This document shows positions 5,182 through 56,326 of a stretch of DNA of 64,000 bases, piece by piece. The DNA is taken from contig JAUSFV010000006.1 in the NCBI GenBank assembly GCA_030649305.1, positions 32 through 64,031 of the forward strand. The letters run 5' to 3'. Under the pieces are notes generated by a model. That model ran no database searches and was not told where the DNA came from. It was given only the letters and a program-made list of their open reading frames with translations. The first letter of the stretch is position 1; each line of letters starts with the position of its first letter. The position numbers and the translations under genes were made by a program. Origin of the DNA: a bacterium (GTDB lineage: Bacteria; Patescibacteriota; Minisyncoccia; Sungbacterales; GWA2-42-14).

Positions 5182-5505
5182 CTAGGTACGCCCCTTACCA
5201 AAAAAGAGATCACGATCATACACAAGGAGATCGGCCATAAGCTTGCGCAACCTTCTTGCGGCAACCTCTTTCTTGCTTCCCGTCGTAGAAATAGAAACTC
5301 CCCGCTTTTTATCATTCATACCCGTAACACAAACCACATCCGCCACATATCCCTTGTCTTCCGCGCTATAAAAGACCTGATAACTAAAAGCTTTGCATCT
5401 CCGTACGCGAACGCCACGACGCAACTCGCGAAGCAATTTTACCATGCGTTTTTTCTCCTTTTCAACGATTGTGCGAAACAGCAAGTTGCTGGCCGCAGTT
5501 TCCAC
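5182..5505 (-). CDS. Double-stranded-RNA-binding-domain-like protein
   Basis: …YVADVVCVTG…GSKKEVAARRLRKLMADLL fits the dsRBD C-terminal consensus G.G.SKKEAK.AA..AL. Confidence 0.4.
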   Translation of the reverse strand: METAASNLLFRTIVEKEKKRMVKLLRELRRGVRVRRCKAFSYQVFYSAEDKGYVADVVCVTGMNDKKRGVSISTTGSKKEVAARRLRKLMADLLVYDRDLFFGKGRT

Positions 5506-5656
5506 AGAATTTATTTTCTCGCCAATTTTCTTTCTGACAAGAAACGCACACGATGAATCTGTTGGTTGAGTGAATCCATTTTTCTATCCGCGGCAAAAGA
5601 AGCCACAGAACATACATAGCGATTGCTATAAGAACGCACGCGAGAAGAATATCCAT
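5462..5656 (-). CDS. Small membrane-anchored zinc-ribbon protein, 64 aa
   Basis: N-terminal TM helix followed by CVSC…CGNC; overlaps the upstream ORF by 44 nt. Confidence 0.3.
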   Translation of the reverse strand: MDILLACVLIAIAMYVLWLLLPRIEKWIHSTNRFIVCVSCQKENWRENKFCGNCGQQLAVSHNR

Positions 5657-5767
5657 TTTTCCTCCTTTTTCAACGATCTTATACTCTAACAGTTAAAGAA
5701 ATCCGAAAATTTGAACTGCCGTAAGTATAACAAGATTTCTGAAAGATGTCAAATAAAAAACCGCTCG

Positions 5768-5803
5768 CCTTATCGGCTAATTCGTGCGAATTAGCCGATA
5801 AGG
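5768..5803. repeat. 36-bp perfect palindrome CCTTATCGGCTAATTCG-TG-CGAATTAGCCGATAAGG (copy 1 of 3)
   Basis: Arms are exact reverse complements; lies 4 nt downstream of the M50 protease stop. Identical copies sit near 13564 and 23688. Confidence 0.8.
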
Positions 5804-5807
5804 AAAA

Positions 5808-6470
5808 TTAGAAAAAAGAAACGCCGGAAAAAATTCTGAACAACAACGATACAACCGGAAACAGCCATTGCGAGAAAAAGAAAATAAAAATCAAAAGGAG
5901 GAAAAAACCGTATTGCTGAAGAAATGTTTCAATGTTGCGCCACTGATACGGAAGCAGGGCGAATAACACTTTTGACCCGTCCAGCGGAGGAATCGGAACA
6001 AAATTAAACACCGCAAGCACGAGATTCACCAGAACAATCAAACCGAAAATTTCCGCGAGATTTTGTGTCACAAGCGAGCCGCCACCGAACACCAGCAATA
6101 CGCGAATGCCGATACCAAACACCAATGCAATGAGGATGTTGGACAACGGCCCCGCCATACCCACGAGCGCCGGCCCCCAATCATTTCGCGAACCAAACCG
6201 CGAAAAGGGATTCTTCAAATTATACGGATTATACGGCACGGGCTTTGCCCATCCGATTAAAAAGGGAGAATGCGCCAAAACGAGCAAAAGCGGCAAAATA
6301 ACCGACCCGAACGGGTCCAAATGTTTCAGAGGGTTCAGCGTCAGGCGCCCCAAATGCTTTGCCGTAGGGTCGCCAAGAAGAAGGGCAACAAACCCATGCG
6401 AAACCTCATGAATCACAACAGAAAAAATAAGAATGGCGATTTGAAAAATAGTAGGGATTGCAGAATCCAT
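5808..6470 (-). CDS. Site-2 protease-family zinc metalloprotease (peptidase M50)
   Basis: HEVSHGFVALLLGD (HExxH in a TM helix) plus LNPLKHLDPFGS; polytopic membrane protein. Confidence 0.75.
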   Translation of the reverse strand: MDSAIPTIFQIAILIFSVVIHEVSHGFVALLLGDPTAKHLGRLTLNPLKHLDPFGSVILPLLLVLAHSPFLIGWAKPVPYNPYNLKNPFSRFGSRNDWGPALVGMAGPLSNILIALVFGIGIRVLLVFGGGSLVTQNLAEIFGLIVLVNLVLAVFNFVPIPPLDGSKVLFALLPYQWRNIETFLQQYGFFLLLIFIFFFSQWLFPVVSLLFRIFSGVSFF

Positions 6471-8888: not shown

Positions 8889-8923
8889 TTATAATAATGA
8901 ATGAGAAGGTTCTATATTTTGGT

Positions 8924-8960
8924 CGGGGTGTAGTATATCGGCAGTACGCATGCATGGGGG
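8924..8960 (+). pseudogene. Orphan 5' half of a tRNA-Pro-like gene (acceptor CGGGGTG, D-arm, anticodon stem 5' strand, loop AUGGGGG)
   Basis: Identical to the 5' half of tRNA-Pro at 9049, including ~12 nt of 5' flank, except acceptor position 5 (G vs C). It is followed by a 12-bp hairpin instead of the 3' anticodon stem. Confidence 0.55.
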
Positions 8961-9048
8961 TGAAGCGTGAATGTCTTCACGCTTCACGGGATTACTTCCC
9001 CCTATGTTTTATTATCAAAGTAATCCCCGGCTCTTTCTGTATTTTGGT

Positions 9049-9122
9049 CGGGCTGTAGTATATCGGCAGTACACATGCATGGGGTGCATGTAGGTCGGGT
9101 TCGATTCCCGACAGCCCGACCA
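9049..9122 (+). tRNA. tRNA-Pro (anticodon GGG), CCA encoded
   Basis: Hand-folded cloverleaf: acceptor CGGGCUG/CAGCCCG, D-stem GUAU/GUAC, anticodon stem CAUGC/GCAUG with loop AUGGGGU, T-arm UCGGG-UUCGAUU-CCCGA, discriminator A. Confidence 0.8.
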
Positions 9123-9138
9123 AAATACAGAACAAAGA

Positions 9139-9174
9139 GATGTAGGCCGGGTTCGATTCCCGGCACCCCGACCA
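9139..9174 (+). pseudogene. Orphan 3' fragment of a tRNA-Pro paralog (variable loop, T-arm CCGGG/CCCGG, acceptor 3' strand CACCCCG, A, CCA)
   Basis: Its acceptor 3' strand complements the orphan 5' half at 8924, not the intact tRNA at 9049; compensatory differences appear in both the acceptor and T stems. Confidence 0.5.
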
Positions 9175-9342
9175 AAAAATTGAAGAAAAAGATGCGGGCC
9201 GGGCCTGCCCCATTAGATGCGAAGCTATCTAATGGGGTGAAATTCCCGGCAACCCCAAAATCAAACCGGACAAAAACGAACTCAAAATACGAAGAAAATC
9301 GATTTAACAAAAAACCGGTAACTAACAAAGTTTTAAATAATT

Positions 9343-12087: not shown

Positions 12088-12319
12088 GGACCCCCTCCTT
12101 TTTTAGCCCTTTTTGGGGGCACAAAATTGTTTGGGTGCTAACTATGTATCAGCAAATATTGCTTATTATAATTATATCACAAATATTTTAAAAAGTCAAA
12201 TTTAAAAATGCCAACGGCAAAATTAAAGATGCCACAGGCAAACTCCGACCCAAAAGAAACAAACCCACCACCACGAGGGTCTTTTGTTACGTGATGACAC
12301 CAAAAAAGGAGGTGAACAT

Positions 12320-13492
12320 ATGAACGCACTCGTGTTCGGCGCAGGCAATATCGGTCGCGGATTTCTTGGTTCGCTTTTAGCGAAAGCGGGGTTTTCCGTG
12401 ACGTTCGTTGACATTGATGAAGCAAAGGTTTCCCACATCAATCATATTCAAGAATACCCGGTTTACATTGTCTCTGACACTGGCATACAGGAAGAAATCG
12501 TACGAGGAATTCGCGCAATTTCCTACTCCGATACGAGCACACTCACAAACGCGGTGGTGGAAGCCGACATCATCATGACGGCAGTCGGCAAAGAGCCTCT
12601 GGCCCGCGTTGCCGCAGGCCTTATGCACGGGCTTGTGCAAAGAATTGAGCAACGCCCCCACGCAGAAATACATATCGTAGTTATCGCCTGCGAAAATATC
12701 CAAGACAACACTGCGTATCTCCAAGCGCTTCTCTCTGCGCAAACCCCGAAACGATACCGCGAACGCATCAAAGATCTCATCAGTTTCCCGAACTGTGTGG
12801 TGGACAGAATCGTCCCGAATACGCTTCCGAAACACGCGCGAGCGCATCCGCTTGCGGTTTCGGTTGAAGAATATTTCCAGCTGGCGATTGACGGGACCGC
12901 GCTGAAAGCCCCTATTCCGAAAATACCGGGGATGGAAATTTCGTCTAACCTGAACGCAACGCTTGAACAAAAACTTTTTACTCTCAACATGGCGCACGCC
13001 ATCGTCGGCTACTACGGATACTTCAAGGGCTATCACTATATCCACGAAGCGATACATGATAAAGAAATCCACGAACTTCTCTGCGGCGCCCTTCAAGAAG
13101 TTGCCGCAATCATCACCGCACGACACCGCCATATTTCTTCCGCTGCCCAACAGCAATACGAAGAAAAGATCATGCAACGCTTCAAAAATCCCCACCTACA
13201 AGACGAAATTATTCGCGTGGCACGACAGCCAAAACGAAAACTCGGTCCGCATGACCGCTTGATACGCCCGGCGCTCCTCACCTGGGAACAAGGACGAATA
13301 CCTGCGTTTCTCGCAAGCGGCATTACCGCAGCATTGCGCTACGACTACGCGAACGATCATCAAGCGCAAGAGCTCGTATCAGAAATCAGAGAACAGGGCA
13401 TTGAACGGGTTCTCGAAACAGTTTCCGGCTTAGCACCGGACAATGAACTTGCGCGGCTCATCAAGGCAGACTTTCTCTTCCAATCTCTTTAA
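12320..13492 (+). CDS. mtlD: Mannitol-1-phosphate 5-dehydrogenase
   Basis: MNALVFGAGNIGRGF N-terminus of the MtlD family; AGGAGG RBS 9 nt upstream of ATG 12320. Confidence 0.8.
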   Translation: MNALVFGAGNIGRGFLGSLLAKAGFSVTFVDIDEAKVSHINHIQEYPVYIVSDTGIQEEIVRGIRAISYSDTSTLTNAVVEADIIMTAVGKEPLARVAAGLMHGLVQRIEQRPHAEIHIVVIACENIQDNTAYLQALLSAQTPKRYRERIKDLISFPNCVVDRIVPNTLPKHARAHPLAVSVEEYFQLAIDGTALKAPIPKIPGMEISSNLNATLEQKLFTLNMAHAIVGYYGYFKGYHYIHEAIHDKEIHELLCGALQEVAAIITARHRHISSAAQQQYEEKIMQRFKNPHLQDEIIRVARQPKRKLGPHDRLIRPALLTWEQGRIPAFLASGITAALRYDYANDHQAQELVSEIREQGIERVLETVSGLAPDNELARLIKADFLFQSL

Positions 13493-13498
13493 AAAATA

Positions 13499-13527
13499 CG
13501 GCACTCGTAACGAGTGCTGTTTTTTTA
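13499..13527 (+). terminator. Rho-independent terminator of mtlD
   Basis: GCACTCG-TAA-CGAGTGC followed by T7. Confidence 0.7.
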
Positions 13528-13563
13528 TGACCCGCCGCGTTGCTATTCTGTATCGCCGCGCTT

Positions 13564-13597
13564 CTTATCGGCTAATTCGTGCGAATTAGCCGATAAG
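13564..13597. repeat. 34-bp perfect palindrome CTTATCGGCTAATTCGTGCGAATTAGCCGATAAG (copy 2)
   Basis: Identical to the copy at 5768; located just after the mtlD terminator. Confidence 0.8.
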
Positions 13598-13651
13598 GAA
13601 AAAATAAAAATGGAACTGGTTTAAAAAAATTTTCTATGGTATCCCCAAACC

Positions 13652-13954
13652 ATGGCATGGGAAATACGTGATAAAAAACTGGGCATCTGGTTAAAACCGG
13701 AAGAAGCAATTGAGGCCCTCGAGAAACGACGAGCCGAAGGCGGTCTTACCTTTGACGAAGAAGGCCAGCTCAAAAGCCTTAAAAAGACGCTGGAAGAACG
13801 GGCAAAACAAGATATAAAAATCGCGGAACAACGAAAACGAAATGAACAAAGAATACGAATAGCCGAATCCCCCGAAGCAGTGGCCTGGAAGAAAAAGGCT
13901 GATGCGCTTCGGGAAGACGAAAAAAGAAAACACCCAGGAGGACACTATCTTTAG
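13652..13954 (+). CDS. Hypothetical charged or coiled-coil protein, 100 aa
   Basis: Track ORF followed by a hairpin and T-run terminator (13955-13995). Confidence 0.4.
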   Translation: MAWEIRDKKLGIWLKPEEAIEALEKRRAEGGLTFDEEGQLKSLKKTLEERAKQDIKIAEQRKRNEQRIRIAESPEAVAWKKKADALREDEKRKHPGGHYL

Positions 13955-14042
13955 AAAACTTCGATCTCAATCGGAGTTTTCTTTTTTTCTTATGTGTGCT
14001 ACGAATACAGCACGAACCTTAAAAAAATAAGGAGGGAAAACA

Positions 14043-14807
14043 ATGCATCCCTACATCGGTGTTACTGGATTCACCAAACTGGAAGAAGTTGCAGCGGCAC
14101 TTGAAGTATTCCCCCACAATCATTCCCGAAAACTTATGATCGGCGGGCTTGCGTCATGGAAGTCGCTCCGCGGCATTCCCCTGAAGCCAATCCGGCAAAA
14201 ACGATTCCCCGCTCCGGAACTTTTTAACAGCATATTCCCCAACGATACGCGGGCGGTCAATCTTATTCATTACAGCATGGGAGAGCGAAAAAACGACGAC
14301 GGAGCTCTTCTCGCTGATATGCTAAAAATTCACGAACTTGCCGGACCGAATTTTCAAGGATTCCAACTTAACATCGCATGGCCGGAAATTGATCAGATAG
14401 CCGAATATCGAATGGTAATGGGCTTTGACTACCGCATCGTCCTCCAAATTTCGCACGAGGCGATTGAAGCGGCGGGTGGAACGCCAAAAGGTGTCACCGA
14501 TATGCTCTCTTACTACCCGGGGTTCATTGATGACATCCTCATTGACGCAAGCGGGGGTCTTGGCAAGGAGCTGGATACGGAACGCGCACGAGAATTTCTT
14601 TCCAAAATAAACATGCGACTTGATATCGGCCTAGGTACAGCGGGCGGACTTGGCCCCGACTCATTACATCTCATAGAACCGCTTCTGGAAGAATTTCCCG
14701 ATTTGAACATTGATGCGGAGGGAAAACTTCGCACCGCCGAAAACGAACTTGCTATCGGCGCGATGAAAACATATCTTTCCAAATCCACTCAATTATTTTC
14801 CTCCTAA
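14043..14807 (+). CDS. TIM-barrel protein, possibly of the phosphoribosylanthranilate-isomerase (TrpF) family
   Basis: …ILIDASGGLG…D… and …IGLGTAGGLGPDS… resemble PRAI C-terminal motifs; AAGGAGG RBS. No other trp genes are nearby. Confidence 0.35.
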   Translation: MHPYIGVTGFTKLEEVAAALEVFPHNHSRKLMIGGLASWKSLRGIPLKPIRQKRFPAPELFNSIFPNDTRAVNLIHYSMGERKNDDGALLADMLKIHELAGPNFQGFQLNIAWPEIDQIAEYRMVMGFDYRIVLQISHEAIEAAGGTPKGVTDMLSYYPGFIDDILIDASGGLGKELDTERAREFLSKINMRLDIGLGTAGGLGPDSLHLIEPLLEEFPDLNIDAEGKLRTAENELAIGAMKTYLSKSTQLFSS

Positions 14808-14835
14808 ACGCTTCGTAAGCGAAGTGAAATCAACG

Positions 14836-14862
14836 AACTCCCGCGCATCGGGAGTTTTTTAT
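14836..14862 (+). terminator. Intrinsic terminator after ORF 14043..14807
   Basis: AACUCCCG-CGCAU-CGGGAGUU followed by U6. Confidence 0.6.
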
Positions 14863-15028
14863 ATTTTCAGCTTATATTACGACCCACACATGTGCTCATT
14901 TCCGCCAAAGGCGGACAGGCGCGCACAAATGAGCACATGTGGAAATTGCGGACAAAACCAGTTTTCTTTTTTTCTCCGATGTGCTACGAATATGGAGGAT
15001 GCTTTGAAAAAATAATAAGGAGAAAACC

Positions 15029-16021
15029 ATGCGGGAACTGCGCGTTTTTTCCGGACGAAGCAACGAACCGTTAGCACACGCAATCGCGCGCTACATTGAT
15101 TCTAAAATGAATGAGAAGCGATCAGTTTTGGGAGCCCTTGACCCGAACAGGGATTTCGCGGACGGCGAAATTTATACCCGGTACGGCGAAAATATCCGAG
15201 AAGCGGATGTCTTTATTATCCAATCCACAAACCAGCCGAATACCCACGAAGTTGAATTGAACCTCATGATCAATACCGCCGTTCTTGCATCCGCGCAACG
15301 AGTAACCGCAGTCATTCCCTACTTCGGCTACGCGCGGCAAGACCGCAAAGATAAATCCCGCGCTCCCGTTACGATCGCAAATATGGCCAGGAAAATTTGG
15401 ATAAGCGGAGCCCATCGCGTCGTATTGTTGGACGTCCACAGCAACAGTACGCCGGTCGCTTTCGCAGCGCTCAATGTCCCCGCAGACCACTTGTGGGTAC
15501 GCCCGATTTTTCTGCACCACCTCACCAAACAAGAACATATATGGAATGACATACATGATTTCGTTGTGGTAGCGCCGGATGTCGGAGCAAGCGAGCGAGC
15601 GCGCGCGTACGGAGATGCCCTTGGCGGCATCCCGCTGGTGGTCATTGAGAAGCGGCGCGTACCCGGCCATTCAAAAGTTCTGAATGTCGTAGGAGAAGTT
15701 GCGGGCAAAGATGTTTTCATGATTGACGACATGATTGATACCGGTGAGACGCTCTGCAATGCCGCGGCAAAGCTTCGCGAGCGGGGTGCGAAACGGATAT
15801 TTGTCCTCGCGACCCACGGCGTATTCTCAAAAGATGCCCTGAAGTGGTTAGAAGAATCAGAAATAGAGCGGATATTCATCACCGATTCAATTCTGCAAAC
15901 ACGTCCCCTTCCCAAAAAAATCACGGTAGTAAGCGTGGCAGAACTTTTAGGGGAGGCAATCATGCGGATTCATAGCGGTGAATCCGTAAGCTCGCTTTTT
16001 GAACACGAGTGGCTTAAATAA
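15029..16021 (+). CDS. prs: Ribose-phosphate pyrophosphokinase (PRPP synthetase)
   Basis: …VFMIDDMIDTGETLCNAA… PRPP-binding motif with Prs N-terminal architecture. Confidence 0.9.
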   Translation: MRELRVFSGRSNEPLAHAIARYIDSKMNEKRSVLGALDPNRDFADGEIYTRYGENIREADVFIIQSTNQPNTHEVELNLMINTAVLASAQRVTAVIPYFGYARQDRKDKSRAPVTIANMARKIWISGAHRVVLLDVHSNSTPVAFAALNVPADHLWVRPIFLHHLTKQEHIWNDIHDFVVVAPDVGASERARAYGDALGGIPLVVIEKRRVPGHSKVLNVVGEVAGKDVFMIDDMIDTGETLCNAAAKLRERGAKRIFVLATHGVFSKDALKWLEESEIERIFITDSILQTRPLPKKITVVSVAELLGEAIMRIHSGESVSSLFEHEWLK

Positions 16022-16080: not shown

Positions 16081-16122
16081 AAAATCTATTCCTAAATTCT
16101 TAAGAATTTAGGAATAGATTTT
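16081..16122. promoter_or_regulatory. 42-bp perfect palindrome AAAATCTATTCCTAAATTC-TTAAG-AATTTAGGAATAGATTTT upstream of the pilin-like gene
   Basis: Exact inverted repeat centred on CTTAAG, ~115 nt upstream of ATG 16239. Confidence 0.6.
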
Positions 16123-19758: not shown

Positions 19759-20439
19759 TTATGTTTTCAGAAGATCCGTCCATGGCTTTGCAATATCTCC
19801 CGCTTTGCATTTCGGACATTCTTCTTTTGTATAGACCGGAATGTCAACCTGAACGGCTGCGTAGAAATAGGGGGCATATCTGGTCTCAACCTCTTTCACG
19901 AACGAAGTAGTGCCTTTCGCGAATACCGCCCGAGCCACAACCGTGCCGCCCAGCCCCTCCACAAATGACGGAAGACGTTGACCAACGCATCGCCCCTGCG
20001 AGGATACGGTATTAAAAACAAATACCTTATCACCCGACTTGATTTCACCCTCAACCAACACATCTCCGAAACGACCAGTATCCTTATAATCCCACAGGGC
20101 ATACCGAATCCGTTTACCCAGAGGAGATTTTCCGTAGTCCGCGAACTCTTTGATGATGGTATTGGTGCCAGGTTCATTCGGCCCGAACACCACATCATAC
20201 CCGATCCGACGCGGAATAGCCCAACGAAACCAATCGGTCACAATCCACCGAACAAACCGCTCATGTTCTGCAATCGGTCGTGGGGTGAAAAAATGCGTAA
20301 GGTGCGCACCATCGGGGTCTGCGGGATATTGCACATGCGCATCAAAAAAAAAGGTATACGGCATGCCGAGCATCTGCTTTATTTGCGATAACGGAAACGA
20401 ATCGGAAACAATGGCGATATGTTCGTTATATTTTCTCAT
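19759..20439 (-). CDS. Hypothetical protein translationally coupled to the FAH gene (4-nt ATGA overlap)
   Basis: Track ORF of 226 aa with no confident family assignment. Confidence 0.45.
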   Translation of the reverse strand: MRKYNEHIAIVSDSFPLSQIKQMLGMPYTFFFDAHVQYPADPDGAHLTHFFTPRPIAEHERFVRWIVTDWFRWAIPRRIGYDVVFGPNEPGTNTIIKEFADYGKSPLGKRIRYALWDYKDTGRFGDVLVEGEIKSGDKVFVFNTVSSQGRCVGQRLPSFVEGLGGTVVARAVFAKGTTSFVKEVETRYAPYFYAAVQVDIPVYTKEECPKCKAGDIAKPWTDLLKT

Positions 20440-21326
20440 GGGTTAAGTCTTCGCGGATCGGGCATCGTAACAAAAGCAACCTCGTTTTCCAAAACTCCAA
20501 GCGCTCCCGCATCCATACGAATACTATCGCCTTCCTGCAACCACGGATATTTTGCAGGCTCAATCTCTTGACCAGTTACCGAGTCAATACGCGCGGCAAA
20601 CTCGGCAATACACCCATTCCCGATGGTACCGGATGCGAGCAGATCTCCCTTCTCAAATCCCTGATTCATCCTGCCATACCACGCAATAACTTGCGCGAAA
20701 CTCCAACACTTCTTCGCGCCGGTTTTCGGGTCATCAAAATAAATGGAACGAAAATTATCCTCACAGCGAAGATCCCATGACACATCTCTCCAATGCTTCA
20801 CGAAAAGCCGCATGTGAATATAGGGAACGCCGTTTTCATCAAAATCAAAGTTGGATGCCGGAACCATCCATGGTCCAAAACTTTTTTCAGCAATACCCTT
20901 GGATGGCGCTACGGAAAGGCGCATCGCCATATCTGACGGCTGAAAGTCGCGCGCGCTCGTATCGTTAAATATGGTGAAAAATGCGTCTCTGGTTACAAAT
21001 TCAATCGCCTCACGCTCGTCCTTGGTTTCAAACGGGTACGGAAAATAAAGACAAATTTCGAATTCATAATCGGCCTTCGTGACAAACGAAGGAAAAATAA
21101 TTGCATCGCCGTTGCCTTTTATTTTGCGCTTTTGTAAATGCGCATCATAGCCATAGGGGCGTTCATACCATTCATCCGGAAAACGCTCGCCGCGCCTCCC
21201 GCGAATTTGTTCCACATGCTTCCGAAAACCAATCATATCGCGAAGCCGCAACGACGATTCTTCGCGCACAACTTCCGCCGCATCATGATACTTTCTACAG
21301 GAATGTCTCACGCTTATCCTCCACAC
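20436..21326 (-). CDS. Fumarylacetoacetate hydrolase (FAH) family protein
   Basis: …DYEFEICLYF… and …GDLLASGTIGNG… resemble FAH-fold motifs; 296 aa. Confidence 0.65.
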   Translation of the reverse strand: MWRISVRHSCRKYHDAAEVVREESSLRLRDMIGFRKHVEQIRGRRGERFPDEWYERPYGYDAHLQKRKIKGNGDAIIFPSFVTKADYEFEICLYFPYPFETKDEREAIEFVTRDAFFTIFNDTSARDFQPSDMAMRLSVAPSKGIAEKSFGPWMVPASNFDFDENGVPYIHMRLFVKHWRDVSWDLRCEDNFRSIYFDDPKTGAKKCWSFAQVIAWYGRMNQGFEKGDLLASGTIGNGCIAEFAARIDSVTGQEIEPAKYPWLQEGDSIRMDAGALGVLENEVAFVTMPDPRRLNP

Positions 21327-21418
21327 AAGATGTCAAACAACTTACGAAATTTATACCATACTCAAATAAAAAACGCAAGAAAAAACCGCCCCGACCGTAG
21401 TCGGAGCGATTCATTGAT

Positions 21419-22633
21419 TTACTTTTTTTCTTTTTGAATCTCCCGCCACTGCCTATACCATGAAATTTCGTAATCCTTGATTTCGCATCCCTCTGCGGCG
21501 GGAAGAACCACGAGAGACGATTTCGTCTCAAGCATAATCGCAACCTGGTCAAGCCACGGGAGATTCTCCGGCTTCGGCGGATCTTCCGTACGCTGTTTAT
21601 CAAGCGCGCGGATATCCGGACCATGATAGGTTCCCGGCGGATGCAAGGTGATACACCCGTCCTGAATCTCGGGACGCACGTTGTAACCACGATGATTAAA
21701 GAGAAGCTCAGTCACATAATTCTGATGAGGATACGGAAGAGAATGCCCCCACCGAGGCAAAAACGCCTGAACGGACGCGCCCTCGTCTTCTGTCACGAAA
21801 ATCGTGAGTGCTTTCGGATCAAGATGAAAATCGGCCGAGGAAAGCGCGCGCAAATCTTTCAGATGCAAAACAAACGGATACAAATCCCCTTCCCATGCGA
21901 CTGCCGTAAACGGAGAAAATGGATACCAAAGACACGCCTCACGACCCACATGCTTCTTTACCCGAACAAAATGGTAGGGGCCGCGAAAGATATCTGCGAG
22001 AGGCACCGGTTCGGCAATCTCAAAAGCGGCGGGCGAAAAAGGATATCCGTCAACCCAATAATGCGAGGGGCGCATGATGCGGCTTGAACATTCATACAGT
22101 AAAATAAATGCGTCCCGCTCTTCAAGAAACGCGTACGTAACGCCACGCGGAATGAAAAAGAAATCCCCCTTTTCATAAGAAAGCAAACCAAAATCAGTAA
22201 AAATCTTCCCGTGTCCCCTATGCACAAAACCAAGCGTGTATGCGCCCTCATGCCGATAGATGTTATGCGCGTCATGGCGCCCGTTGAAAAGAGAGACGGC
22301 AATATCGTCCCCCACATATAACCCCCGGGGGAATTCGAGCGAATGAAGATCGTGAGATATTTTTTCGAGATCAAACGCGCGTCGTTCTAGTTTCATATTC
22401 TCCTGTTGCACAAGCAAGGAAGCCCGTGATAGAGAATCGGACTTTCGAGAATATTCGGATTGATAAACCACGCTTGGAGAATTCTCGCAAATTATCTCTG
22501 CCCCAAACTCGAGTTTATAGTTATACAAACCCTTCGGCGCGCGGCCGTTGAGCGGAAACGTAATTTTATCTTCGTATCCCTTGCGCACGCGCTTCTGATA
22601 AGGAAAGCCCGCCATAACCGGCGCGTTTTTCAT
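21419..22633 (-). CDS. hmgA: Homogentisate 1,2-dioxygenase
   Basis: ~405 aa with the HGD-type cupin core (…YRHEGAYTLGFVHRGHGKIFTDFG…GDFFFIPRGVTYAF…); AGGAGGAGG RBS before ATG 22633. Confidence 0.75.
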   Translation of the reverse strand: MKNAPVMAGFPYQKRVRKGYEDKITFPLNGRAPKGLYNYKLEFGAEIICENSPSVVYQSEYSRKSDSLSRASLLVQQENMKLERRAFDLEKISHDLHSLEFPRGLYVGDDIAVSLFNGRHDAHNIYRHEGAYTLGFVHRGHGKIFTDFGLLSYEKGDFFFIPRGVTYAFLEERDAFILLYECSSRIMRPSHYWVDGYPFSPAAFEIAEPVPLADIFRGPYHFVRVKKHVGREACLWYPFSPFTAVAWEGDLYPFVLHLKDLRALSSADFHLDPKALTIFVTEDEGASVQAFLPRWGHSLPYPHQNYVTELLFNHRGYNVRPEIQDGCITLHPPGTYHGPDIRALDKQRTEDPPKPENLPWLDQVAIMLETKSSLVVLPAAEGCEIKDYEISWYRQWREIQKEKK

Positions 22634-22774
22634 TCGCCTCCTCCTTCCAAAATTGTCAGTGAGCCACAAACTTTATTTAACAAAAATTTTAAATTTTGTC
22701 AATATAGACAAAAAACATCCCGCGGGGCACAAATATGATAATGAGAACCTTGCCAATCAAAAAAGGAGGCGTAC

Positions 22775-23614
22775 GTGAAAATCAAAAAACAGAATCTGAC
22801 ATTTGATCATATCGCTACGGTCAACGGCGCGAACGACGGATCGCTTGAGAGAACGGTGAGCCTTTTTAAGCTCCTCGGCTTTACCTCAAATATGTATGAT
22901 CGCGCAAAGGGTGTCGGAGAAGACCGTCCCGACGGAACTAAGATGCGTACCATCGTAGTCGCGCGGGACCATGTAAAAATTGCGCTCATGGAAGGGATGG
23001 ACGGGCGGAGTACGGACGGCAAACCCATTGCCTCGCAAATCACCGAATACTTTAGGCGGTTTGGTGTATGCGTCCAGCATATCGCCATTCGCTGTAATGA
23101 CCTTCAGGCGCTCGTGCAAGAATTACATAAGCGCGGCATTCGCTTCATCACGCAATACGAAAACGGAAAGCCGCAAATTCTCGTAAGCGAAGACGAGGAA
23201 GAAGGAACAGTTCTGCAATGTTTCACGTTTCCGGTTGAAGGAACATTCTTTTTTGAACTCAAACAGGTTATCAAAAAAAGAGGCGCAAAAAATATCCAAG
23301 AATTCAGGGATGCGAACGTGAAAGGACTCTGGTCAAGCATCAAGGAAGCCATTGACCAGGGCTGGCTTTTCAACGTCAATATCCGCGGTGAAAAAATAAA
23401 ATCAACCCGCGCCTACTCTCATCCCGAACTTGCGGCGTATATCAAAAAATTAGTTGCGGGAAATCCTTTGTGGGAGAGCGAGGTTGAATATATAACGCGC
23501 GTGGCTGTAGAGAAAACGAAACATGAGATGCTTAATGCGGGAACACTTATCAAGAAAGAAAATCGTCTTGAACTTCCCCTGCCACCCGTGAAAAACAAAA
23601 TCAAAGGCGGGTAA
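22775..23614 (+). CDS. Vicinal-oxygen-chelate dioxygenase resembling 4-hydroxyphenylpyruvate dioxygenase
   Basis: Two VOC-like halves (…FDHIATV…; …VQHIAIRCNDL…), divergent from hmgA. AGGAGG RBS. Confidence 0.5.
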   Translation: MKIKKQNLTFDHIATVNGANDGSLERTVSLFKLLGFTSNMYDRAKGVGEDRPDGTKMRTIVVARDHVKIALMEGMDGRSTDGKPIASQITEYFRRFGVCVQHIAIRCNDLQALVQELHKRGIRFITQYENGKPQILVSEDEEEGTVLQCFTFPVEGTFFFELKQVIKKRGAKNIQEFRDANVKGLWSSIKEAIDQGWLFNVNIRGEKIKSTRAYSHPELAAYIKKLVAGNPLWESEVEYITRVAVEKTKHEMLNAGTLIKKENRLELPLPPVKNKIKGG

Positions 23615-23654
23615 AATCCATAATCATTCGCGGAGGTGCTCCGCGAAAAACAAA

Positions 23655-23680
23655 AGGTCGCAGACATGCGACTTTTTTTC
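23655..23680 (+). terminator. Intrinsic terminator after ORF 22775..23614
   Basis: GUCGCA-GACA-UGCGAC followed by U7. Confidence 0.7.
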
Positions 23681-23687
23681 TTTTTCC

Positions 23688-23722
23688 CCTTATCGGCTAA
23701 TTCGTGCGAATTAGCCGATAAG
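23688..23722. repeat. Perfect palindrome CCTTATCGGCTAATTCGTGCGAATTAGCCGATAAG (copy 3)
   Basis: Identical to the copies at 5768 and 13564; again just 3' of a terminator. Confidence 0.8.
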
Positions 23723-24067
23723 AAAATATGCCCACACTAATTTAATTTTATATAAAACCCCCAGCGAGACAAAATAAAAACGCTGCGGGATTCCGCGGCA
23801 TTTTTATCCGCCCCGCGATTGGACAGGTTCAAAAGTTTTAGCATGAAATCACGTGGGTTGCCGCAATTTCAGCCCAAGGGCCGAAACAATGTAGGCATCC
23901 CGAAAAAGTGAGATTGTCCTAAAACCTTGACCCGCAATCAACGGAGCTTATCTTCATTATACACGAAACACAAACCATAAAACAAGACCGCTTCTGAAAA
24001 TGTTGATTATATTTTACAAATATGGTATTCTAAAATCAGAGCACTTTGTCAAAAAATGAGCAAAAAT

Positions 24068-25471
24068 ATGTGCGGATTTCTCGGCATCGCATCGCAAGAA
24101 ACCGATGTTGCGGAAGACCTCTACCTGAGCCTTTGGTCACTCCTGCATCGCGGCAAAGAAAGTTCGGGTATCGTCACCTATGACGGCGCATCCTACCATC
24201 CCGAAAAAGGCATGGGTACGGTTGAGGTAGTATTCGGAGGCGATACGCTCTCGCGTCTCAAAGGACGAATCGGCATAGGACATGTCCGCTACTCCACGAC
24301 CGGAGAAAGCTCTCTCAAAAACGCCCAGCCCATTGAGGGGTCATTCAAAAGCACGCCGTTCTGGATTGCCCATAACGGCAATCTGACAAACACGGAAACA
24401 CTCCGAAAAGAATGCGAAGAACGCGGATACTTTTTTAAAACATCAACCGACACGGAGGTTATCGCGGCTCTCATATATTTCTCCGGCGCGCCAAATTTTG
24501 AAGACGCCCTGAAACGCGCCCTGCGAAAAATTGAAGGCACCTATGCGCTGACCATTCTCTCCAAAGACACGCTGTACGCTGTTCAGGACGAAACGGGCAA
24601 TCGGCCTTTGAGTATGGGGCAAGGAAGGGGTCTTACGGTGTTTGCGTCGGAGAGTGCGGCCTTCGATGTGCTTGGCATCAAATACGTACGAGATATTAAA
24701 GTGGGCGAGATAATCGCGGTATCGCTCGAAAGTCCCCTCCTCCCCTCGGAAATTCCGTTCCGCAATCGTAAAGACGCCCCCGAACGCCCGTGTATTTTTG
24801 AATACGTATATTTTCTGCGCCCGGACAGCAAGTGGTACGAACGACGCGCCCAAGTTGTCCGAGAACATATGGGACGAATTCTATGGAAAGAATGTCCGAT
24901 TGAAGCCGATGTGATAGTGCCGGTTCCTGACTCCAGCAACTTCATGGGCGCGGGACTTTCAAAAGAATCAGGTATCCCGCTTGAGATGGCTTTATTTCGT
25001 TCGCACTATGTGGGACGAACATTCATTGAGCCCGTGCAAGCGCGGCGAACCAAAGAAATGAGAATCAAGCTGAATATAATACCCGAACTTGTTCAAGGGA
25101 AAAAAGTTGTCGTAGGAGATGATTCAATTGTGCGTGGCACCTCAATTAAACGAGCCATTTCGCTTGTTCGGGAGGGGGGTGCCAAAGAAGTCCACGTGCG
25201 CATAAGCTCTCCTCAATATATCTCACCATGCTACTACGGCATTGATACCTATCGCGTCAAAAACGAACTTATCGCGAAAAACCACGCGGGCAACATTGAA
25301 GAAATTCGAAAAGAAATCGGCGCGGATTCGCTCTATTATCTAAGCTTAGAGGGGATGAAGCGCGCCGTGACTGACGCGCGCGATGACGAACACCGCGCCC
25401 TTCAATTCTGCGACGCCTGTTTTACCGGAAATTACCACATCCCCATTCCACAAGAAATCATCACATCATAG
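24068..25471 (+). CDS. purF: Amidophosphoribosyltransferase
   Basis: MCGFLGI N-terminal nucleophile Cys, a class-II GATase domain, and a C-terminal PRTase domain (…VVVGDDSIVRGTS…). Confidence 0.9.
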   Translation: MCGFLGIASQETDVAEDLYLSLWSLLHRGKESSGIVTYDGASYHPEKGMGTVEVVFGGDTLSRLKGRIGIGHVRYSTTGESSLKNAQPIEGSFKSTPFWIAHNGNLTNTETLRKECEERGYFFKTSTDTEVIAALIYFSGAPNFEDALKRALRKIEGTYALTILSKDTLYAVQDETGNRPLSMGQGRGLTVFASESAAFDVLGIKYVRDIKVGEIIAVSLESPLLPSEIPFRNRKDAPERPCIFEYVYFLRPDSKWYERRAQVVREHMGRILWKECPIEADVIVPVPDSSNFMGAGLSKESGIPLEMALFRSHYVGRTFIEPVQARRTKEMRIKLNIIPELVQGKKVVVGDDSIVRGTSIKRAISLVREGGAKEVHVRISSPQYISPCYYGIDTYRVKNELIAKNHAGNIEEIRKEIGADSLYYLSLEGMKRAVTDARDDEHRALQFCDACFTGNYHIPIPQEIITS

Positions 25472-25561
25472 CAAACCAAAAACGGCTCCTCGCGAGCCGT
25501 TTTTTATTTTTCTATTTTTGCTATTCCCCTCCCATCTTCACCTTTAAACTTCTTCCAAGTA

Positions 25562-25593
25562 CTATTTTCTTATTCGCGCGAATTAGAAATAAG
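25562..25593. promoter_or_regulatory. Near-palindromic site CTATTTTCTTATTCGCGCGAATTAGAAATAAG overlapping the 3' end of the arsR-like gene
   Basis: Core ATTCGCGCGAAT; direct and inverted repeat of the site at 25900-25931. Confidence 0.6.
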
Positions 25594-25848
25594 AAAAATT
25601 AAGACACGAACCGCCGCAGGGAGTGAATCCGCGAGGCGATAAAAAACAGTAAGGCTGACTTGATTTCGCTCAACGATATCTAACTGCCGAAGCAAATTAA
25701 GATGTTTTGAGGTGGCAGTAAAAGATAAACGAATTGCGTCAGCAATTTCCCCGACGCTCAAAGGCCGTTTTTTCTGCAAAAGAAGTTTAATAATCGCGAG
25801 CCGGCGCTTATTCGCAAGCCCTTTTAATATTTTTTCAAGATTTTTCAT
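25570..25848 (-). CDS. ArsR/SmtB-family winged-helix transcriptional regulator
   Basis: …RLAIIKLLLQKKRPLSVGEIADAIRLSFTATSKHLNLLRQLDIVE… HTH typical of ArsR. Confidence 0.65.
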   Translation of the reverse strand: MKNLEKILKGLANKRRLAIIKLLLQKKRPLSVGEIADAIRLSFTATSKHLNLLRQLDIVERNQVSLTVFYRLADSLPAAVRVLIFLISNSRE

Positions 25849-25899
25849 ATTTTCTTTTCCATCTCTCTTCCTATCTTCTCATCTATCCCCTCTTCTCAC

Positions 25900-25931
25900 C
25901 TATTTTCTAATTCGCGCGAATAAGAAAATAG
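25900..25931. promoter_or_regulatory. 32-bp near-perfect palindrome CTATTTTCTAATTCGCGCGAATAAGAAAATAG upstream of the arsR-like gene
   Basis: Arms are reverse complements with one mismatch. Preceded by a CT-rich tract; putative operator. Confidence 0.6.
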
Positions 25932-25972
25932 GTGAACCCACGATAAGAAAAATAGAAAAAAATATTCAGGTG

Positions 25973-26578
25973 TTATTCTAGCAAACCATCCAAATTCACA
26001 TCATATAAAATATGGTCCTGCACGAGGTGATAATTGACGAGCTCGCCCTTCTTGAACCAATGCTCGATTTCTTTTTCCGCCTCCCCCACCGAACCTGATG
26101 CGTGAATCAAGTTTCTGATACTTCGCGTATCCCCGTCAGACACCTCATACGAATCTAAAACAAAATCGCCGCGAATGGTGCCGACGTCCGACGTCAACGG
26201 CTCGGTTCCTCCCACAAGCTTTCGCACGATTTTCACCGCGTGCGCCCCCTGCCACACCATCACAATCACGGGGCTTGCAGTCATATATTTTTTCAGGCGT
26301 TCCAAAATTGACGCTGTAATTTCAAGCGGGTCTTCGGACGGCGGGGTTTTCCCTTTTTCTTTGTAACTTCGAATGGTTTTCTCGCCCGTCACCCTCCGCC
26401 ACTCGGAGTCAAGAGTGTAATGTGCCTCAACAAATGCCTCATCCGGCAAAACCATTTTCATCGCGACCAATTTCAAACCGATGCGCTCAAAACGCCCGAT
26501 AATTTCGCCGACCAAAGAGCGCTGAAGCGCGTCCGGCTTAATAATAACAAGCGTTTGTTCTTTTTTGGGATGTTGCAT
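25973..26578 (-). CDS. ndk: Nucleoside diphosphate kinase (with an insertion)
   Basis: LVIIKPDALQRSLVGEIIGRFE… …GTIRGDF… …NLIHASGS…: NDK motifs. Confidence 0.8.
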   Translation of the reverse strand: MQHPKKEQTLVIIKPDALQRSLVGEIIGRFERIGLKLVAMKMVLPDEAFVEAHYTLDSEWRRVTGEKTIRSYKEKGKTPPSEDPLEITASILERLKKYMTASPVIVMVWQGAHAVKIVRKLVGGTEPLTSDVGTIRGDFVLDSYEVSDGDTRSIRNLIHASGSVGEAEKEIEHWFKKGELVNYHLVQDHILYDVNLDGLLE

Positions 26579-36022: not shown

Positions 36023-36066
36023 AAAAATGTAGCTATATTTGCGATAGCAAATATAGCTACATTTTT
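36023..36066. terminator. 44-bp perfect hairpin (20-bp stem AAAAAUGUAGCUAUAUUUGC, loop GAUA) with A/U runs built in; bidirectional terminator-like
   Basis: Exact inverted repeat seen in the sequence. Confidence 0.55.
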
Positions 36067-52652: not shown

Positions 52653-53888
52653 TCACGGCAAAAAATACGACAACCAATTCTTCACCCCTGATACCACCCT
52701 CCCGAGCGATGTCGTATAAAAATACGGGTCTTTGCCGGAGGAACGATTCAGGTGCCATGCAACAAGACCAAGTGCCACCGGAATCTCCGACAAAAAATCA
52801 TGCGCCTCACCCGCTCCCTCAAGAAAATCGGATTGCGAACCAATTTCAACCGGAAGCCGGAGTTCGCGCTTTGCCAACTCCACAATCCCCGGAATCCGTG
52901 ATGCCCCGCCGATCAGCACCACCCCCGCGGGAAGCAACCCCATACGATCCACGCGCTTCAGCTCCTTCATGCCGAGTTCAAAAATATCCCGAAAGCGCGC
53001 TTCAATAATTTCAGCCAAATTCCGCTGGGGGAAAAGTGCCGGGTCATCAGGAATAAATTCGGCAAGTTTGATAACTTCGCGCTTGGAAAATACCTCGGGC
53101 AGAGAGTGGCCGAAACGAAGCTTAATGGCTTCTGCCGTGCTCACAGCCGTTTTTAAACCAATCGCGATATCGTTCGTAATGTGATTTCCCCCGACAGGAA
53201 ATACTCCGGCACTCAAAAGGCGCCCCTCTTCATACACGGCAAAATCCGACGTACCCGCGCCGATATCAAGCAACATCACCCCGAGTTCTTTCTGCCGTTT
53301 TGAAAGCGCTGCCTCTGATGCGGCAAGCGGAGAAAATACCACGTCCTCAACGGTAACACCTGAGGACTCAATACATTTAAGCAAACTTGCAACGGCAGAA
53401 CGCAGGCCGTCAATAATGAGCGCGTCCGCCTCAAGACGAATACCCACCATCCCGACGGGATCCTTAATGCCGCCCTCGTTATCAATCCGAAATTCTTTCG
53501 GAATAATGTGAACGATGTCGCGATTCGGATTTTTCGGAGCCAAATTTTCTGCGGCAGTAAGAACGCGCTTCACGTCATCGTCAGAAATTTCGCCGTCAGC
53601 CCTTCCCACCGCGACAACTCCGCGCGACGTAAAAGAACCCATATGCGTCCCGCCGATACTCGCGATACACGAACGAATCTTCACGTTTGAGGAGCGCTCC
53701 GCCTCTTTCAAGGATTTTTTTACAGCGGAGGAAACCTCGTCAATGTCAGCCACCGCACCCCTTCGCATGCCAAAAGCAGGTACACGGCCGAGCCCGAGTA
53801 CCCTGATTTTTTCTTTCCCCGTCCGCTCGCATACCAACGTCGTGACACTATTCGTTCCGATATCAATTGCGGTTATTATGCTTCGCAT
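52653..53888 (-). CDS. ftsA: Cell division protein FtsA
   Basis: ITAIDIGTNSVTTLV… actin-fold N-terminus with FtsA architecture; start at ATG 53888. Confidence 0.8.
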   Translation of the reverse strand: MRSIITAIDIGTNSVTTLVCERTGKEKIRVLGLGRVPAFGMRRGAVADIDEVSSAVKKSLKEAERSSNVKIRSCIASIGGTHMGSFTSRGVVAVGRADGEISDDDVKRVLTAAENLAPKNPNRDIVHIIPKEFRIDNEGGIKDPVGMVGIRLEADALIIDGLRSAVASLLKCIESSGVTVEDVVFSPLAASEAALSKRQKELGVMLLDIGAGTSDFAVYEEGRLLSAGVFPVGGNHITNDIAIGLKTAVSTAEAIKLRFGHSLPEVFSKREVIKLAEFIPDDPALFPQRNLAEIIEARFRDIFELGMKELKRVDRMGLLPAGVVLIGGASRIPGIVELAKRELRLPVEIGSQSDFLEGAGEAHDFLSEIPVALGLVAWHLNRSSGKDPYFYTTSLGRVVSGVKNWLSYFLP

Positions 53889-53982
53889 AATACTCGACAC
53901 CAATACACAAATCGCTCACGAATGTCACGAATACGATTTTTCATTAGTGTCATTCGTGCCCATTCGTGTGTTTGTGTCGGGC
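53886..53982. repeat. ~95-bp element R1 (CAUACUCGACACCAAUACACAAA…CACGAAUGUCACGAAUA…GUCAUUCGUGCCCAUUCGUG…), between ybeY and ftsA
   Basis: ~90% identical to R2 at 55332-55425; begins at the ftsA start codon and contains a bipartite hairpin of CACGAAU/AUUCGUG repeats. Confidence 0.7.
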
Positions 53983-54845: not shown

Positions 54846-55334
54846 CTATCCTAGCACTTTCTTCACTACTCTACTCACCCGATCCCCCGACGCCTGCCCC
54901 TTCGCGCGTTTCATAATTTCTCCCATAACACGGCCAAAATCTTTTTGCGTGACCTCACCAAGCCCGCCCACAACCTCGCCAACAATTTTTTCAAGCTCCT
55001 CGTCCGACATCTCCTCGGGCAAGTACGATTGTAGCATTACAAGTTCGCGTTTTTCACGCTCCGCCGCCTCCTGCCTTCCGCCTTTTTCATACCCCTCAAT
55101 CGCATCTTTTCGTTTTTTTGCCTCCGTGCGAATTGTCTCAACCATTTCCTCATCCGTCAATTGCGATTCTTTTTCCAGATTCTCCGTACCCCCCCTTTTG
55201 CTTAATTTGGTTCGTTTCTCAATCTCCCGGTTCCGAACCGCGGCAAGCAACATCCGAAGCGTTGAAAGCAAATCGCCCTCGTGTTCCCTAAGGGCTTTTT
55301 TCGCATCATCTTCTATTTTTTGTTTTAGCGTCAT
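54846..55334 (-). CDS. yqeY: GatB/YqeY-domain protein
   Basis: …DLLSTLRMLLAAVRNREIEK… YqeY pattern; sits in the conserved rpsU-yqeY neighbourhood. Confidence 0.65.
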   Translation of the reverse strand: MTLKQKIEDDAKKALREHEGDLLSTLRMLLAAVRNREIEKRTKLSKRGGTENLEKESQLTDEEMVETIRTEAKKRKDAIEGYEKGGRQEAAEREKRELVMLQSYLPEEMSDEELEKIVGEVVGGLGEVTQKDFGRVMGEIMKRAKGQASGDRVSRVVKKVLG

Positions 55335-55425
55335 ACTCGACACCAATACACAAAATTTTCACGAATGTCACGAATAACGATTTCCCGTTAGTGTCATTCG
55401 TGCCCATTCGTGTATTTGTGGCGGG
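55332..55425. repeat. ~95-bp element R2 (paralog of R1) between rpsU and yqeY
   Basis: Begins at the yqeY start codon; same CACGAAUGUCACGAAUA…GUCAUUCGUGCCCAUUCGUG core. Confidence 0.7.
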
Positions 55426-55657: not shown

Positions 55658-55667
55658 AACAATAAAA

Positions 55668-55773
55668 TTTCTAATTATTAATTTCTAATTAACCTAATCA
55701 AATCCCAACAAAATTAGACATTCAGGGGTTAGGCATTTATTAGAAATTAGGTCAATTAGGAATTAGACATTTG
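55668..55773. repeat. ~106-bp element RA with ~30-bp terminal inverted repeats (TTTCTAATTATTAATTTCTAATTAACCTAAT … ATTAGAAATTAGGTCAATTAGGAATTAGA)
   Basis: ~85% identical to RB at 56171-56277; MITE/REP-like. Confidence 0.65.
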
Positions 55774-55816
55774 AAGACATGCGATAATTCTCCAAACTCC
55801 AAATCCTTCAAGCGAT

Positions 55817-56170
55817 TCATACGCGATACTCGTCTGGATTATCCTCCCTCCCCCATCCTCCGAGCAAATGCAGATGCAAATGATCAATCACCTGCCCCCC
55901 CTCTCTGCCTACATTAAATACTAATTTATATCCTTTCAAGCCCTTCTCTGCGGCAATCTGTTTTGCGCGATAGATTAATTTTGCAATCATGTCGCTATGA
56001 TTTTCCTGCAAATACGCGATGGACTCAACATGTTCTTTTGGAATCACAAGAATATGTACGGGGGCAGATGGCCGAATGTCTTTGAAGGCCTTAATTTCGC
56101 CGTCCTCATACTCAATCTCGGACGAAACCTCGCCCTGCGCAATTTTACAAAAAATACAATCTGAATACAA
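55817..56170 (-). CDS. HIT-family (histidine triad, Hint-like) protein
   Basis: …CIFCKIAQGE… and …IDHLHLHLLGG… histidine triad; apparent TTG start. Confidence 0.75.
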   Translation of the reverse strand: MYSDCIFCKIAQGEVSSEIEYEDGEIKAFKDIRPSAPVHILVIPKEHVESIAYLQENHSDMIAKLIYRAKQIAAEKGLKGYKLVFNVGREGGQVIDHLHLHLLGGWGREDNPDEYRV

Positions 56171-56277
56171 TTTCTAATTACTAATTTCTAATTGACCTAA
56201 ACAAATCACAAACCCCAATTCACAAAATTAGTCATCGGGCATTGATTAGAAATTAGATCAATTAGGAATTAGACATT
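56171..56277. repeat. ~107-bp element RB (paralog of RA) between hisS and the HIT gene
   Basis: The same TIR-bearing element; the two copies flank the HIT gene as direct repeats. Confidence 0.65.
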
Positions 56278-56326
56278 TGCAAACACCGATAAACGAATAT
56301 GCCTCTCTGCAAACATCCTACACCCC

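Follow-up and report, generated by a model that had tools for sequence, protein, structure and literature searches.

The window, as we call the whole 64,000-nucleotide stretch of DNA analysed here, contains members of a family of long palindromes which are probably operators of a Patescibacteria-specific clade of minimal ArsR/SmtB regulators of around 86-92 residues. As predicted from the sequences, a dimer of such a regulator, or possibly two dimers, would bind the invariant centre ATTCG-YR-CGAAT through a recognition helix of the form LSF(R/K/T)(S/A)TS(R/K)HL, and the four to eight bases beside the centre (GGCTA, TCTCTW, CCCCTW, GTGCTT and others) would select the paralogue that binds. Each regulator gene would be bracketed by two sites. 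Placed over the -35/spacer part of the promoter, the upstream one implies that the gene is autoregulated, and most likely repressed. Extra sites elsewhere in the genome would bring other genes under the same control.

Three exact copies of a 34-bp palindrome, CTTATCGGCTAATTCG-TG-CGAATTAGCCGATAAG, are present in the window at 5769-5802, 13564-13597 and 23689-23722, where none would be expected. The full 34-mer, CTTATCGGCTAATTCGTGCGAATTAGCCGATAAG, has a 16-2-16 layout and was not matched in 100 dinucleotide-preserving shuffles, even when three mismatches were allowed. An earlier note on this DNA had claimed the complete identity of the three, which is borne out. Its boundaries hold for copy 1, a perfect palindrome over 36 bp (5768-5803), but the start it gave for copy 3, at 23688, takes in one unpaired base; copies 2 and 3 are perfect over 34 bp. 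The centre dinucleotide is TG on the + strand in all three copies, all of which are intergenic and lie upstream of the next gene. Similarity among the three loci is limited to the palindrome and an A-rich right flank. No flanking direct repeats or target-site duplications were found at the three copies; the repeated unit is the 34-bp palindrome only.

Copy 1 begins 5 nt past the stop codon of an M50-peptidase gene (5808-6470, - strand) and is followed, 16 nt further on, by the -35 hexamer of a near-consensus, sigma-70-like promoter on the - strand (5724-5752; TTGACA-17-TATACT, 11 of 12 matches, TG-extended) that serves a 64-residue zinc-ribbon gene (5462-5656, - strand). Copy 2 lies 43 nt past a terminator-like hairpin and 54 nt ahead of the ATG of 13652-13954 (+ strand), the first gene of a run that includes a PRPP synthetase (15029-16021). 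Copy 3 lies 11 nt past another such hairpin and 333 nt ahead of a purF-like gene (24056-25471, + strand). Both hairpins resemble intrinsic terminators on the + strand, with T runs, and are separate from the palindromes: that at 13498-13520 would serve a mannitol-dehydrogenase-like gene (12284-13492) and that at 23652-23677 a VOC-family gene (22775-23614). The earlier note was right about these terminators ahead of two copies. Its placing of the copies just 3' of genes describes their positions accurately but is half the picture, given that each has a next gene downstream too, and the copies are better described as promoter-side intergenic elements than as 3'-end elements. The possibility that the palindromes are themselves intrinsic terminators was rejected: a terminator scanner calls none of them, no T run follows them, and distinct terminators are present at the two places just mentioned and at 25478-25504.

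The untranslated gap of 333 nt (23723-24055) that separates copy 3 from the purF-like gene includes a second terminator-like hairpin (23782-23799) and a promoter-like site on the - strand (23772 to 23745) that is aimed back through copy 3. Rfam finds nothing within the gap, which could be a small RNA or a leader. Exact look-ups of the M50-peptidase and PurF-like proteins matched no record. The VOC-family protein has its sole 100% match in a 4.3-kb Logan contig that ends 36 nt past the gene, and the contigs of its relatives (43-53% identical), too short or too different, contain no motif.

The exact 34-mer has no match in 185,579 representative genomes, from which it follows that the source genome and its close relatives lie outside that set. 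Its 22-nt core, GGCTAATTCGNNCGAATTAGCC, matched at least 120 metagenome contigs, many of them from groundwater and sediment. Among the matches listed, the centre dinucleotide is TG in 54, CA in 44, TA in 32, CG in 8 and AA in 2, and is therefore nearly always pyrimidine-purine. Looser searches show the invariant part to be the centre ATTCG-YR-CGAAT. A search of 1.83 Mb (the loci and the window) for the centre as ATTCGNNCGAAT gave 321 occurrences, where chance predicts about 1.7, and in 311 of the 321 the middle dinucleotide is YR; with one mismatch allowed the search becomes uninformative in the window (eight found, seven expected).

Outside the centre the arms vary yet tend to remain complementary. 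Flank position 6, the most variable by entropy, is complementary in 76% of sites compared with 27% expected, and some sites (in L178 and L145, for example) are perfect over 20-24 nt per arm, beyond the reach of a single dimer. The half-sites come in discrete, combinable types, including ..GGCTA, ..TCTCTW, ..CCCCTW, ..GTGCTT and ..CGTTC. Hybrids of two types make up about 35-40% of the sites adjacent to regulator genes, and only 25-33% of these sites are symmetric over all ten flank positions. That the hybrids form poor hairpins and yet keep their place is an argument for sites read as double-stranded DNA.

The GGCTA-type consensus, derived from 153 distinct sites in many organisms, reads CTTAT[A/C]GGCTAATTCG; loci picked by palindrome are biased towards sites of this type. 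Both halves of the window 34-mer agree with the family consensus: of the six variable flank positions, five have the commonest base and the sixth has the second commonest (C against A). Contig L079 contains the same 34-mer, with identity that extends over 38 nt; it has no other similarity to the window, and in it the palindrome again follows a terminator. Selection for an optimal site can thus explain the identity of the three copies, and recent transposition is not needed. Even so, likeness is greater among the copies of one genome than across genomes, and some copying, or co-evolution with a cognate paralogue, is likely.

These results bear on the suggestion, made in the earlier note, of a REP/BIME-type element. 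If a transposase such as RAYT had spread a mobile palindrome of the REP/BIME or MITE kind, this would account for three extragenic copies near gene 3' ends that are identical over 34 bp, for the greater likeness of copies within a genome, for a gene between two copies in the manner of RAYT genes flanked by REPs and for the Logan contig whose end, 36 nt short of copy 3, resembles an assembly break at a repeat. We nevertheless consider it very improbable. The search for a RAYT gene proposed in the note yielded neither a Y1 nor any other transposase when the 52 ORFs of the window, 64 kb of the genome, were compared with Pfam, and the gene that is flanked encodes a winged-helix protein of 86-92 residues with no catalytic domain. 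Copy number appears low: the 64 kb have five sites, and relatives have about one per 30 kb outside the neighbourhood of the regulator gene. Instead of belonging to one species, the centre is conserved in many candidate phyla; sites occupy orthologous positions, and the exact 34-mer is a phylum-wide consensus present in an unrelated organism. The three copies lack target-site duplications, and viral contigs, phage records and plasmids gave no meaningful match to the palindrome family.

The reading of the palindromes as operators derives much of its strength from an association with one protein family that is evident in both directions. When the proteins encoded no more than 150 nt from a palindrome were clustered, in the loci picked by palindrome, the largest cluster was an ArsR-like protein of about 86 residues, homologous to the product of window ORF 25570-25848. 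It accounted for 20 loci among the 120 contigs listed, and the next largest cluster for five. ORFs in the loci were simple longest-ORF calls. In the reverse direction, an alignment of the family picked 80 genome loci by protein alone, the best match being 59% identical. Nearly all are Patescibacteria MAGs, with a few other taxon labels, some MAG labels being unreliable; they include Liptonbacteria, Jorgensenbacteria, Zambryskibacteria, Taylorbacteria, Kaiserbacteria, Nomurabacteria, Giovannonibacteria, Colwellbacteria, Harrisonbacteria, Doudnabacteria, Paceibacterota and others. The centre alone lies within 230 nt upstream of the gene in 53 of the 80 loci and just downstream in 58. With the strict core TAATTCGNNCGAATTA, allowing at most one mismatch, a site is found within 200 nt upstream in 34 loci, at or just after the stop codon in 41 and in both places in 28, and only 12 other sites occur in 1.1 Mb of flanking sequence. 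Loci that lack the strict core have variants with the same centre and different arms. The TAA of the core is itself the stop codon of the regulator gene in 15 of the 80.

Loci L204-L209, a Sungbacteria MAG among them, encode proteins 63-80% identical to that of the window and have both sites at the same places; L204 and L205 also have the MBL-NDK-arsR gene order in common with it. Two paralogues are present in MAGs JACPLI01, MHIY01, LCPL01 and JACPHR01. No other protein family recurs beside the sites in the loci examined.

A separate proposition, that close pairs of palindromes always enclose ArsR paralogues, was rejected by two loci. In L146 (12460-12907) the pair encloses a 107-residue zinc-ribbon protein, copy 1 of the window likewise preceding a zinc-ribbon gene, and in L180 (5959-6287) it lies at the 5' part of an Smr-like ORF. 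L206 has, at 12629-13995 and about 2-4 kb from its ArsR-like gene, an RVT_1 reverse transcriptase beside a bAvd gene, which looks like a diversity-generating retroelement.

The ArsR-like gene of the window (25570-25848, - strand) encodes 92 residues and is named at NCBI as a metalloregulator ArsR/SmtB family transcription factor (MDO8600150.1). Its recognition helix, LSFTATSKHL, places it in a subfamily with the helix LSF-x-ATSKHL. The product matches HTH_5 in Pfam (E=4.9e-10) and NF033788 in NCBIfam (62.8 bits, the cut-off being 55), and it reached no equivalog-level NCBIfam model. The best sequence matches in the PDB are HlyU, NolR and SmtB. An AlphaFold2 model, made with an alignment of database homologues, has a pLDDT of 89 and the predicted order H-H-H-H-E-E-H of a canonical winged helix; Foldseek superimposes the model on NolR, HlyU, SmtB and CzrA with TM scores of 0.79-0.82. 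The predicted winged helix-turn-helix fold (a1-a2-a3-aR-b1-b2-a5) agrees with the family models. The invariant or near-invariant residues of the family are K9, R15, R16, V32, L41, S42, T46, S47, H49, L50 and Y70. They include no conserved Cys or metal-ligand set: neither an a3N Cys motif, nor an a5 His/Asp/Glu metal site, nor a Cys pair is present, and the one His that is invariant belongs to the recognition helix. The lack speaks against a metal-sensing role, not against membership of ArsR/SmtB by fold.

The gene is bracketed by an inverted pair of 28 nt with 100% complementarity (25562-25589 and 25904-25931). The upstream site (25896-25935) is a 40-nt near-perfect palindrome of TTTCTW type, TCACCTATTTTCTAATTCGCGCGAATAAGAAAATAGGTGA, whose dyad lies 69 nt ahead of the ATG. 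The downstream site (25562-25589) encodes the last codons of the gene (S-N-S-R-E) and supplies its stop, the TAA of CGAATAAG lying inside the palindrome; it stands ahead of, and is distinct from, the bidirectional terminator at 25478-25504. The core that the earlier note saw as common to these palindromes and the three 34-mers is real, being present as CTTATTCGCGCGAATTAG at 25569-25586 and as CTAATTCGCGCGAATAAG at 25907-25924. The flanks are of different types: the sites of the gene itself are TTTCTW with a CG centre, and the three 34-mers are GGCTA. The regulator in the window would bind the TTTCTW-type pair around its own gene, and from this difference in type a second, Arg-type paralogue (LSFRSTSRHL), encoded outside the window, is probably the binder of the three copies. 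The earlier note had put forward the ArsR-like protein for a binding test, a suggestion that keeps its force for the family and probably fails for the member encoded here; tblastn detects no second family member within the window.

Flank type is correlated with a residue of the recognition helix. Of the genes in the protein-picked loci, 13 have Arg at helix position 4 (LSxRSTSRHL), and 10 of these have GG at flank positions 4-5; of 50 with Lys at the same place, 6 have GG (Fisher p=1.3e-5, a test that ignores phylogeny). Five or more separate branches of a rough NJ tree carry the combination of Arg and GG. This correlation points to direct read-out of the flank by the ArsR-like protein, and together with the two-way association it lends strong support to the other suggestion of the earlier note, a site for a dedicated DNA-binding protein.

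Association alone does not name the protein that binds, and a different one, such as a global regulator or a nucleoid protein, might do so, with the mini-ArsR gene as its most constant target. The diversity of the targets would suit such a protein, as would the presence of the downstream site in convergent regions too and a symmetry that extends past the reach of one dimer. We think it distinctly unlikely, given that the relation of Arg or Lys to the flank points to the ArsR-like protein itself, that genomes with two paralogues exist and several flank types are found among the sites, and that the regulator is the only family seen repeatedly next to them.

Site geometry is most informative at the regulator gene. 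Upstream of it, an excess of -10-like hexamers is seen 20-39 nt downstream from the dyad, whose own position is thus about -32 to -51, on top of the -35/spacer region. The inverted repeat with its 2-bp centre is accordingly found at or near the regulator's own promoter, in the usual place of an autorepressor, and the geometry of a class-II activator is also compatible. Sites away from the regulator gene have a broader spacing to -10-like hexamers. One peak, at +10 to +14, coincides with a TATA in the outer arm itself, and another is at +35 to +64. A downstream site is present in 49 of 62 cases in which the next gene is co-directional and in 26 of 35 in which it is convergent. It was therefore rejected as no more than an operator of the next gene, being equally frequent ahead of convergent genes, and the site-gene-site module appears to be a property of the regulator gene itself. 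Looping, insulation and a roadblock are possibilities for the role of the downstream site. Under crude ORF calling, no depletion of non-regulator sites in convergent intergenic regions was seen. On the sense strand of the regulator gene, in loci L002-L200, the centre is CA in 80 sites and TG in 34; for downstream sites alone the ratio is 45:15 (p=1e-4), a polarity for which no explanation offered here accounts.

A structure formed in single-stranded nucleic acid must also be weighed, be it an mRNA 3'-end stabiliser, an RNase III site, an attenuator or a DNA cruciform, with the ArsR gene as an incidental neighbour or one client. The 36-mer folds as DNA at -15.8 kcal/mol (z = -8), flank positions stay complementary while their sequence varies, with some arms perfect over 20-24 nt, and the downstream site falls within the 3' end of the regulator's mRNA. 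A hairpin is nonetheless unlikely on balance. The hybrids that make up some 35-40% of the sites at conserved positions pair poorly, and the upstream sites overlap the promoter rather than the transcript. The conserved part is a self-complementary YR centre, typical of a dyad-symmetric protein site and not of a loop. T runs are absent and separate terminators present, and Rfam has no match for the palindrome, reporting only two tRNAs in the window. Finally, a hairpin leaves the correlation between helix residue and flank unexplained.

The operator reading has its own difficulties. The symmetry of the arms exceeds what independent recognition of half-sites predicts, and the predicted Arg-type paralogue is absent from the 64-kb window (tblastn). 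The centre of copy 1 is about 57 nt upstream of the -10 hexamer of the zinc-ribbon promoter, that is, near -68, which is no classical repressor position. The occurrence of downstream sites before convergent genes, the lack of depletion of non-regulator sites between convergent genes, the diversity of targets and the broad spacing to -10-like hexamers likewise speak against it. Arm symmetry beyond the footprint of a dimer and the consistent bracketing of the gene by two sites are left unexplained by operators as such.

If the palindromes are operators, the candidate target genes are functionally diverse. The 34-mers of the window would be GGCTA-type sites of consensus strength, promoter-side and past the terminators of the upstream genes, and the three copies would control the - strand run of the zinc-ribbon gene, the run from 13652 to the PRPP synthetase, and purF. 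Several genes beside sites in the window concern nucleotide supply, namely the PRPP-synthetase run (13652-16021), the PurF-like amidotransferase (24056-25471) and an NDK (25973-26578), which the regulator gene follows. In other organisms, sites precede dinB (three cases), ogt (two cases), dnaE, rnhB, dut and purT; further candidates are a NUDIX gene, a PurN-like formyltransferase (judged by eye from sequence) and aminoacyl-tRNA synthetases. There are hints here of a theme of DNA repair and nucleotide supply, an impression and not a statistical finding.

A broader proposal, which we put forward tentatively and think rather doubtful as a whole, is a phylum-wide 'mini-ArsR code'. Genomes would contain several paralogues of 86-92 residues that share the ATTCG-YR-CGAAT centre and differ in paralogue-specific flanks. 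Mixed pairs of paralogues would read the hybrid sites, and the two operators enclosing each regulator gene would form a loop, an insulator or a roadblock. The regulon would lean to DNA-repair and nucleotide-supply genes (DinB, Ogt, DnaE, RNase HII, dUTPase, PurF/N/T and PRPP synthetase), and the very long perfect arms would stem from a palindrome-perfecting process such as template switching. Were all of this true, the code would be among the first global regulatory circuits to be definable in these reduced, mostly uncultured bacteria.

Some other features of the window were seen in passing. A tRNA gene (9049-9119) lies amid partial duplicates of its own 5' and 3' parts (8909-9191; repeat families D9, D11, I5 and I6; 85-94% identity), which may be integration scars or a decayed tRNA array. 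Two pairs of direct repeats with 87-92% identity, 53882-53981 with 55325-55425 (1.44 kb apart) and 55661-55779 with 56164-56285 (0.5 kb apart), are rich in AATTAG/GAATTAG and flank small ORFs, including a HIT-family gene. Long perfect palindromes at 16081-16122 and 36023-36066 are unrelated to the ATTCG-YR-CGAAT family; in one, just upstream of a pilin-like gene of 911 residues, arms of 21 nt meet without a gap, and in the other, near ftsZ, arms of 20 nt are 4 nt apart. A homogentisate-pathway-like cluster at 20436-23614 (FAA hydrolase, HgmA-like and VOC/glyoxalase-family genes) is unusual for a reduced, CPR-type genome.

The probable regulator-operator pair looks to be undescribed so far. A full-text search of the literature found no description of the mini-ArsR subfamily, its motif or its distribution, and no link between ArsR and Patescibacteria; to our knowledge, almost no transcriptional regulators or operators have been described in Patescibacteria/CPR. 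The pair can be recognised from sequence alone, in Liptonbacteria, Zambryskibacteria, Sungbacteria and Doudnabacteria among others, and so offers a handle on the regulons of uncultured organisms. The mini-ArsR proteins are tiny and easy to express and their sites are oligonucleotides of 34 bp, and the apparent relation of Arg or Lys to the flanking bases would amount to a small natural specificity code for the ArsR fold. For annotation, the palindromes should not be filed as REP elements or terminators.

An ArsR/SmtB autoregulator with a long inverted-repeat operator split by 2 bp is itself well known. ArsR/SmtB operators have a '12-2-12' inverted-repeat layout, which the 2-bp centre between long arms matches here. 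The autorepressors SmtB, CzrA, CadC and NmtR share the fold (TM around 0.8) and are likewise small dimeric winged-helix regulators encoded beside their own operators, which are also long inverted repeats with a 2-bp centre that overlap the promoter. Unlike them, the mini-ArsR family has no conserved metal-binding Cys/His set. The operator word of the SmtB/CzrA type is TGAA-N6-TTCA, whereas the word here is ATTCG-YR-CGAAT and the arms reach 16-24 nt. The mini-ArsR systems also differ in having a second site at the 3' end of the gene, often providing its stop codon, and half-sites of several modular types.

The non-metal ArsR relatives HlyU, NolR, BigR, SdpR and PagR have the same short architecture and supply the best matches in sequence and structure. 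Their sites are palindromes or nearly so, and several of these proteins regulate their own genes. In HlyU and BigR a Cys pair acts as the redox or sulfide switch, whereas the mini-ArsR family has no conserved Cys. Systems of REP elements and RAYT show a likeness in their dispersed extragenic palindromes and in a cognate gene between two copies, but the gene flanked here encodes a DNA-binding protein rather than a Y1 transposase, and the palindromes combine an apparently low copy number with a phylum-wide core. The paired operators of lac (O1/O2), gal (OE/OI) and deo resemble the present sites in the spacing of the two operators (300-450 bp) and in the way these bracket or span the regulated gene or promoter; we know of no looping by ArsR/SmtB proteins, and the second site, unlike in lac, gal and deo, is at the 3' end of the regulator's own gene. 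The architecture seen here is unusual in that two sites bracket the gene, an operator contains its stop codon and the half-sites are modular.
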